This document shows positions 43,376 to 43,508 of a DNA stretch of 44,441 nt, piece by piece. Positions within the stretch are counted from its first letter, which is position 1, and every line of letters starts with the position of its first letter. Origin of the DNA: a virus (Duplodnaviria; Heunggongvirae; Uroviricota; Caudoviricetes); the IMG/VR virus record IMGVR_UViG_2778261530_000005; one strand, 5' to 3'. A program made the translations under genes and the position numbers. A model generated the notes under the pieces. The model was given only the letters and a program-made list of their open reading frames with translations, was not told where the DNA came from and made no database searches.

Positions 43376-43508
43376 TCTGTTAAAAGCCAGAAGCATTCCC
43401 TTCGCTGACTTTATAGTCAACCATAACACACACTCTACTGTCTGAGTCCAGCGTTTTTTAACATTCTTGTTAAGATTATGTGATCTTTAGCGCGGGAGGA
43501 AAATATTG

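Follow-up and report, generated by a model that had tools for sequence, protein, structure and literature searches.

Integration of a lambda-type prophage in the sdsR terminator of Escherichia coli and its predicted effects on ryeA and pphA

Introduction

Phages that integrate at the 3' ends of tRNA and tmRNA genes cross over within the terminal hairpin, and their attP restores the gene. The target RNA stays functional because the phage carries a near-identical copy of its 3' end. A comparable site exists in the gene for SdsR (RyeB), which is among the most abundant stationary-phase small RNAs and represses tolC, yhcB and, in some reports, mutS. SdsR has been called a toxin, and RyeA (SraC), its antisense partner, the antitoxin. 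The attachment site of phage phiW104 of Salmonella Typhimurium DT104 is the last 23 bp of ryeB, and its integration alters the 5' part of ryeA, according to the accounts of Balbontin et al. (2008, J Bacteriol 190:4075) given in two reviews and in Frohlich 2012. In these secondary accounts, ryeA expression was lower and ryeB expression was higher in the phiW104 lysogen. The reviews and Frohlich 2012, as second-hand sources, also describe repeated uptake of foreign DNA at the ryeA/ryeB locus.

In E. coli K-12, sdsR is co-transcribed with pphA, and read-through of the SdsR terminator from the sdsR promoter (PsdsR) supplies most pphA transcription; pphA was lowered in an sdsR promoter mutant (Choi et al. 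2019, PMC6610125). We found no report of a prophage at the sdsR/pphA-yebY site of E. coli in the literature searched. Here, we describe such a prophage in the IMG/VR record IMGVR_UViG_2778261530_000005. The whole stretch of DNA analyzed, 44,441 nucleotides, is called the window. A prophage rearrangement of this type has already been described for a Salmonella phage, and the E. coli case is real but largely ordinary.

Results and discussion

Integration site of the prophage

The window contains, in order, yebY, sdsR-ryeA, the prophage, and pphA (Table 1), and the host is E. coli. When the two bacterial flanks were joined (251-601 and 43375-43760), the sequence matched uninterrupted yebY-pphA loci over 100% of its length with up to 99.6% identity. 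The prophage is 42,772 bp long, which is also the spacing of attL and attR, a 32-nt direct repeat with three mismatches. Among complete E. coli genomes, the yebY-pphA site was contiguous in 5191 of 5426 and non-contiguous in the other 235. The integrase-proximal arm was present in 228 of the 5426 (~4%), which is consistent with the number of non-contiguous sites, and its carriers included many O26, O111, and O121 strains. Both junctions were matched with 100% identity by strain BCE049 (NZ_CP042250). A search of genome contigs with the integrase matched one E. coli locus and one Shigella locus only. In the IMG/VR search, related integrases of ~75% identity were also located at this site, in hosts with a yebY-sdsR flank only 78-80% identical to that of E. 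coli.

Table 1. Coordinates of features in the window
Feature	Position	Strand	Basis or remark
yebY (DUF2511), left bacterial flank	1..342	+	ORF; Pfam PF10709; annotated yebY in matching loci
RyeA body, 3' 234 nt of 272, antisense to the whole of sdsR, without the native promoter and first 37 nt	370..603	minus	RF00101; K-12 alignment
Bidirectional intrinsic terminator, ending yebY (+) and RyeA (minus, 3' end ~370)	372..412		Hairpin followed by U-run in minus-strand fold
sdsR (ryeB), complete	500..602	+	RF00111; alignment to K-12 and ATCC 11775; start from primer BHI+11R (Choi et al. 2019, PMC6610125)
attL homology block	572..603		Crossover zone 577-587 (ACAGGAATCGT)
Phage P' arm	604..733		IHF-like site, arm-type repeats, extra core-like copy
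Candidate promoter-like site TTTGCA-16-TACAAT, predicted start ~597	604..631	minus	Consensus scan, 9/12 matches
IHF-consensus-like AATCAATTAGTTG	615-627		P' arm
Tandem arm-type repeats CCCCGAAATT	636-667		P' arm
Tyrosine integrase, adjoining attL and reading toward attL and sdsR	734-1810	minus	ORF; PF00589, PF22022, PF09003
Excisionase, near attL	1776-2063	minus	Exc PF07825
attR homology block	43344..43375		Crossover zone 43349-43359
RyeA 5' unique segment, first 37 nt, +1 = 43412	43376..43412	minus	K-12 annotation; primer mapping
ryeA sigma-70 promoter fragment (-1 to -80)	43413..43492	minus	Identical to active K-12 fragment
pphA (protein phosphatase 1)	43509..44165	+	ORF; Pfam Metallophos; K-12 annotation

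We compared the attachment sites of the free phage and the bacterium. The attP form is P arm-CGAAAACAGGAATCGTATTCGGTCTTTTTTTAATTG-P' arm in the phage record PP818812 and in an IMG/VR contig, and attB is CGAATACAGGAATCGTGTTCGGTCTCTTTTTATCTG in K-12 and ATCC 11775. This comparison places the crossover within ACAGGAATCGT, in the SdsR terminator. At attL, bacterial-type sequence (GAATAC) lies left of 577, and sequence of the attP form (GTATTCGGTCTTTTTTTAATTG) lies right of 587. An arm-DNA-binding domain of the lambda type is present at the N terminus of the integrase (PF09003), and tandem arm-type repeats were found in the P' arm; an arm-binding Int with repeated arm-type sites in the P and P' arms is the arrangement of a lambda-type attP. 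A strict arm-site pattern gave 3 matches against 1.35 expected, a count that is not significant alone, and the arm-type sites were therefore called from the tandem repeats and their conservation. The IHF-like site and the tandem repeats are the conserved parts of the P' segment, and the repeats are kept as CCTCGAAATT in the 75%-identity clade.

Altogether, we consider it highly probable that a lambda-type temperate phage used its Int to recombine into the 3' half of the SdsR terminator, which corresponds to the last ~25 bp of sdsR, and that it split ryeA and kept SdsR, from which we infer the regulatory effects. As in a phiW104-type prophage of the ryeB 3' end, an att core inside the last ~23-25 bp of ryeB and a tyrosine integrase are present and the ryeA 5' part is phage DNA. 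The secondary accounts of phiW104 likewise place its site in the last ~23 bp of ryeB, internal to ryeA, with ryeB restored and phage DNA in place of the ryeA 5' part. The same accounts differ from the present case in that the host is Salmonella and RNA levels are reported for it, whereas the E. coli prophage is described from sequence and lies where pphA is co-transcribed from PsdsR. The crossover in a terminal hairpin and the restoration from attP recall integration at tRNA and tmRNA genes. Unlike in those systems, the target is an Hfq-dependent small RNA with a fully overlapping antisense gene, and this partner is left unrestored.

Some additional observations were made on the attachment sites. 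Extra core-like copies lie in both arms, GTATTCCGGTCTTTTTT at 670-686 in P' and AATACAGGAAT at 43161-43171 in P; the latter is the bacterial version of the left half of the core. They may be left from earlier events or serve as additional core sites for Int. In the IMG/VR prophage L009, the P' arm is deleted between the core and the repeat at 676. Phage record PP818812.1, "Actinobacillus phage vB_Apl-pPE4" (locus L004), is labeled as from Actinobacillus pleuropneumoniae and carries an integrase and attP 98% identical to those of this prophage, including the sdsR-derived core. It looks as though this host label is doubtful or the phage derives from an E. coli lysogen.

SdsR and the RyeA body at attL

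A version of the sdsR 3' end is present in attP, and SdsR is thus rebuilt at attL. The sigma-S promoter region of sdsR (421-499) is intact and aligned as in non-lysogens, and the RF00111 model matched over its full length (1-100) at 503-602 on the plus strand with 118 bits. The last 15 nt of the lysogen SdsR are phage derived and include two substitutions, 588 G>A and 597 C>T. With these, the 3' U-tract changes from CUCUUUUU to CUUUUUUU and becomes uninterrupted, and one U-G pair becomes U-A. A stronger terminator stem resulting from the phage G>A was considered and ruled out: the hairpin (568-596) has the same predicted stability as the native one, at -15.8 kcal/mol for either version, and the difference is confined to the U-tract. 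The other copy of the SdsR terminator, on the plus strand of attR (43338-43374), is weakened to -4.7 kcal/mol, compared with -15.8 kcal/mol.

The antisense gene has a different fate. In the K-12 RefSeq annotation, ryeA occupies 1923066-1923337 (272 nt), sdsR lies on the opposite strand at 1923104-1923207, and pphA starts at 1922969; ryeA thus begins between these two genes, 38 nt past the 3' end of SdsR and at a distance of 97 nt from the ATG of pphA. Because it starts there and reads back across the insertion point, ryeA is cut in two. No continuous ryeA unit from its start across sdsR to the yebY-side terminator was found; the 42,772 bp of prophage lie between +37/+63 and the rest. The initial annotation had located the remainder of the antisense template at 500-603. 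This location is right but incomplete, as the K-12 ryeA 3' end (1923337) aligned to about position 370 of the window and the RyeA body extends that far.

The split is not apparent from covariance model searches. The Rfam model RF00101 (SraC_RyeA) matched 606-462 on the minus strand with 180 bits, and K-12 scores 175 bits. This model covers only the internal 145 nt of RyeA (positions 35-179 of K-12 ryeA; 1101-1245 of locus L001), leaving out the first 34 nt and the last 93 nt of the 272-nt RNA. For this reason, the full-length match is misleading and blind to the split. Rfam-based pipelines will score RyeA as intact in these lysogens, which is an annotation trap.

The ryeA promoter at attR

In K-12, three ryeA start sites were mapped by primer extension and 5' RACE, and transcription of ryeA-CAT was driven by a fragment that spans -80 to +10, numbered from the start farthest downstream (Choi et al. 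2019, PMC6610125). Transfer of the K-12 annotation places the RyeA +1 of the window on the minus strand beside attR (Table 1), and the primers of that study give the same +1, with BHIA+10R at 43403-43422 and the -80 primer at 43474-43492 (Choi et al. 2019, PMC6610125). The corresponding 90-bp fragment (43492-43403, minus strand) is 100% identical to K-12, and the sole difference from K-12 within 43349-43573 is at position 43398. The -10 element is likely the extended element TGtTATGGT at 43428-43420. A simple consensus promoter scan misses this known promoter, and results of the scan, including the candidate reading from 631 to 604, are therefore weak evidence. In addition, replacement of the ryeA -10 in K-12 rendered RyeA undetectable (Choi et al. 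2019, PMC6610125), and the native locus thus has no second ryeA promoter on the yebY side.

These results bear out the initial annotation, which had proposed that ryeA is split from sdsR by the insertion, with the antisense promoter on the minus strand right of attR at about 43376-43500; the mapped K-12 promoter is present there in identical form on the pphA side, and 42,772 bp separate the two parts. It had further predicted that the transcript runs into phage DNA and retains about 30 nt of complementarity. The interval 43376-43508 indeed contains the ryeA promoter and the RyeA 5' segment. The sequence agrees with both points, since only the 37 nt of unique RyeA sequence and the 32-nt att copy remain on the promoter side before phage DNA begins, and this copy pairs with the lysogen SdsR at 29 of its 32 positions. 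For an RNA starting at 43412, a pairing of ~26 bp with the SdsR terminator was predicted, including a G-U pair and an A-C mismatch. The energy gain calculated for pairing of this orphan RNA with SdsR was -22.9 kcal/mol, compared with -139.9 kcal/mol for native RyeA and SdsR. The K-12 RyeA probe CGTGTTCGGTCTCTTTTTATCTG has its sole location in the window at attR (43357-43379), where RF00101 scored 26.4 bits, below its gathering score. Leftward of attR on the minus strand, the scan showed no intrinsic terminator until 42029.

Expected effects on SdsR and RyeA

On this arrangement, the lysogen would make no native 272-nt RyeA. Convergent ryeA transcription would cease to interfere with the sdsR promoter, and the mutual degradation that depends on RyeA would be lost or much reduced. 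With interference relieved and degradation reduced, SdsR could be expected earlier or at a higher level in the lysogen. The orphan ryeA promoter, intact and presumably active, would fire into the right end of the phage and yield a chimeric RNA that crosses the P arm of attR and continues, in antisense, through the truncated invertase gene. This RNA would probably be ended by Rho because there is no intrinsic terminator for 1.3 kb. The retained duplex of ~26 bp, as modeled, may still permit some interaction of the orphan RNA with SdsR.

Two K-12 mutants resemble parts of this state. The ryeA -10 mutant is like the lysogen in having no RyeA transcription converging on sdsR, and the sdsR promoter mutant in having no PsdsR read-through to pphA (Choi et al. 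2019, PMC6610125). Unlike in either mutant, the ryeA promoter of the lysogen is intact but moved by 42.8 kb, and both effects are combined. In the K-12 ryeA promoter mutant, SdsR appeared earlier and pphA was increased (Choi et al. 2019, PMC6610125). An altered SdsR/RyeA balance in the lysogen is supported by this mutant and by the accounts of phiW104.

The split might also be physiologically silent, if sigma-S governs SdsR almost wholly, RyeA is dispensable, and the orphan RNA is short and unstable. In this direction point the poor conservation of sraC, whose promoter position differs between species, and the rise of SdsR by only ~1.5-fold in sraC promoter deletions (Frohlich 2012). Mutation of the ryeA promoter in K-12 changed only 22 genes (Choi et al. 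2019, PMC6610125), and ~4% of complete E. coli genomes tolerate the insertion. However, loss of the ryeA promoter raised a read-through reporter ~4-fold and led to earlier SdsR, and pphA is dependent on PsdsR (Choi et al. 2019, PMC6610125); changed levels of both ryeA and ryeB were also reported for the Salmonella lysogen in the secondary accounts. We thus regard a silent split as somewhat unlikely and prefer an altered SdsR/RyeA balance, in which the effect of RyeA loss on SdsR may be small. The expected phenotype is mild. If ~4% of E. coli, including many Shiga-toxin producers of O26, O111, and O121, lose RyeA control and the link of pphA to sigma-S, this would be lysogenic conversion by rewiring of noncoding RNA without a cargo gene.

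Possible antisense transcription from phage DNA

The loss of antisense control would be smaller if the phage supplied transcription across sdsR. The consensus scan placed a promoter-like site, TTTGCA-16-TACAAT, exactly at the attL junction. A chimeric RyeA starting from it at ~597 would cover SdsR and end at the native terminator, so that most of the antisense control would persist and the split would be functionally silent; the predicted RNA is close to the Rfam SraC_RyeA model, which scored 180 bits at attL. However, the site matches the consensus at only 9 of 12 positions, and the region scanned contained 2 such sites where 3.2 were expected by chance. Among 70 related att-adjacent loci, the -10 TACAAT was present in 55 and altered in 15, mostly with loss of the essential A at position 2. 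The site was missing from the whole 75%-identity clade and also from the Salmonella phage ZC-S1_prp, and the segment overlaps the IHF-like site and the arm-type repeats, which account for the conservation that exists. A conserved phage-borne replacement promoter is thus unsupported, and we consider it unlikely that this site maintains antisense control.

Read-through from xis-int is a second possible source. In this case the RyeA body would be the 3' UTR of int, and antisense RNA across sdsR would be low in stable lysogens and high on induction. The int gene lies on the minus strand with its stop 130 nt from attL, and neither the scan nor the folds showed an intrinsic terminator on that strand from 734 to the RyeA terminator (412-372); any int transcript would therefore end in the RyeA body. 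A hairpin at 683-712 was tried as an int terminator and rejected, being followed by no U-tract and not conserved in the 75%-identity clade. Nevertheless, int transcription is generally very low in repressed lambdoid prophages, the analysis identified no int promoter, and Rho may terminate in the untranslated P' arm. We judge antisense supply by this route to be quite improbable. Neither the phage promoter nor int read-through is backed by conservation, although either could partly restore antisense control.

A further arrangement resembles sib of phage lambda. As in lambda, att lies between int and the downstream sequence, so that the 3' context of int differs between the integrated and the free phage. 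Hypothetically, the prophage RNA downstream of int would also become part of an extended duplex for RNase III, with SdsR as the partner in trans: SdsR would pair with the int 3' UTR, that is, the RyeA body, and RNase III would lower Int. Unlike in lambda, this duplex would consist of two molecules, one of them a host small RNA, and would form in the integrated state, the opposite of lambda. We give this reading very little weight. If it were true, RNase III would cut the 100-bp SdsR duplex and remove the protective terminator, lowering Int in stationary phase, and prophage excision would be tied to the stress state of the host through the sigma-S-dependent SdsR. Phage transcripts would soak up SdsR upon induction. 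In addition, attR would be crossed by transcription from the orphan ryeA promoter in growing cells, and control of pphA would pass from sigma-S to the phage end.

Separation of pphA from the sdsR promoter

In the preferred reading, the split of ryeA with SdsR retained, the insertion also affects pphA. This gene is now 42.8 kb from the sdsR promoter, beyond the right end of the phage, and faces the orphan ryeA promoter. Since read-through from PsdsR supplies most pphA transcription in K-12, pphA would be expected to lose its main promoter in the lysogen. From the K-12 comparison, we infer that the lysogen should resemble the sdsR promoter mutant at pphA and the ryeA promoter mutant at sdsR. With the terminator copy at attR reduced to -4.7 kcal/mol, pphA could be reached by transcripts that run rightward out of the late operon or the invertase remnant of the phage. 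No report of pphA cut off from PsdsR by a prophage was found in the literature searched. The separation of pphA from PsdsR and the possible phage-borne antisense sources are points beyond those of the initial annotation, as are the possibly small size of the effect and the Salmonella precedent.

Other features of the prophage

An open reading frame for a Pin/Hin-type invertase (42670-43044, plus strand) is truncated at its 5' end; the Pfam Resolvase match covers only profile positions 85-144, and HTH_7 is also matched. Because of the truncation, this invertase, which lies beside tail-fiber genes, is probably an inactive remnant. Several Rfam small RNAs scored above their gathering scores in the prophage, namely RalA (with ralR on the opposite strand), DicF, the sok antitoxin, IsrK, and C4 with its a1/b1 targets, at positions 2168-2346, 7868-7919, 15188-15362, and 17455-17653.
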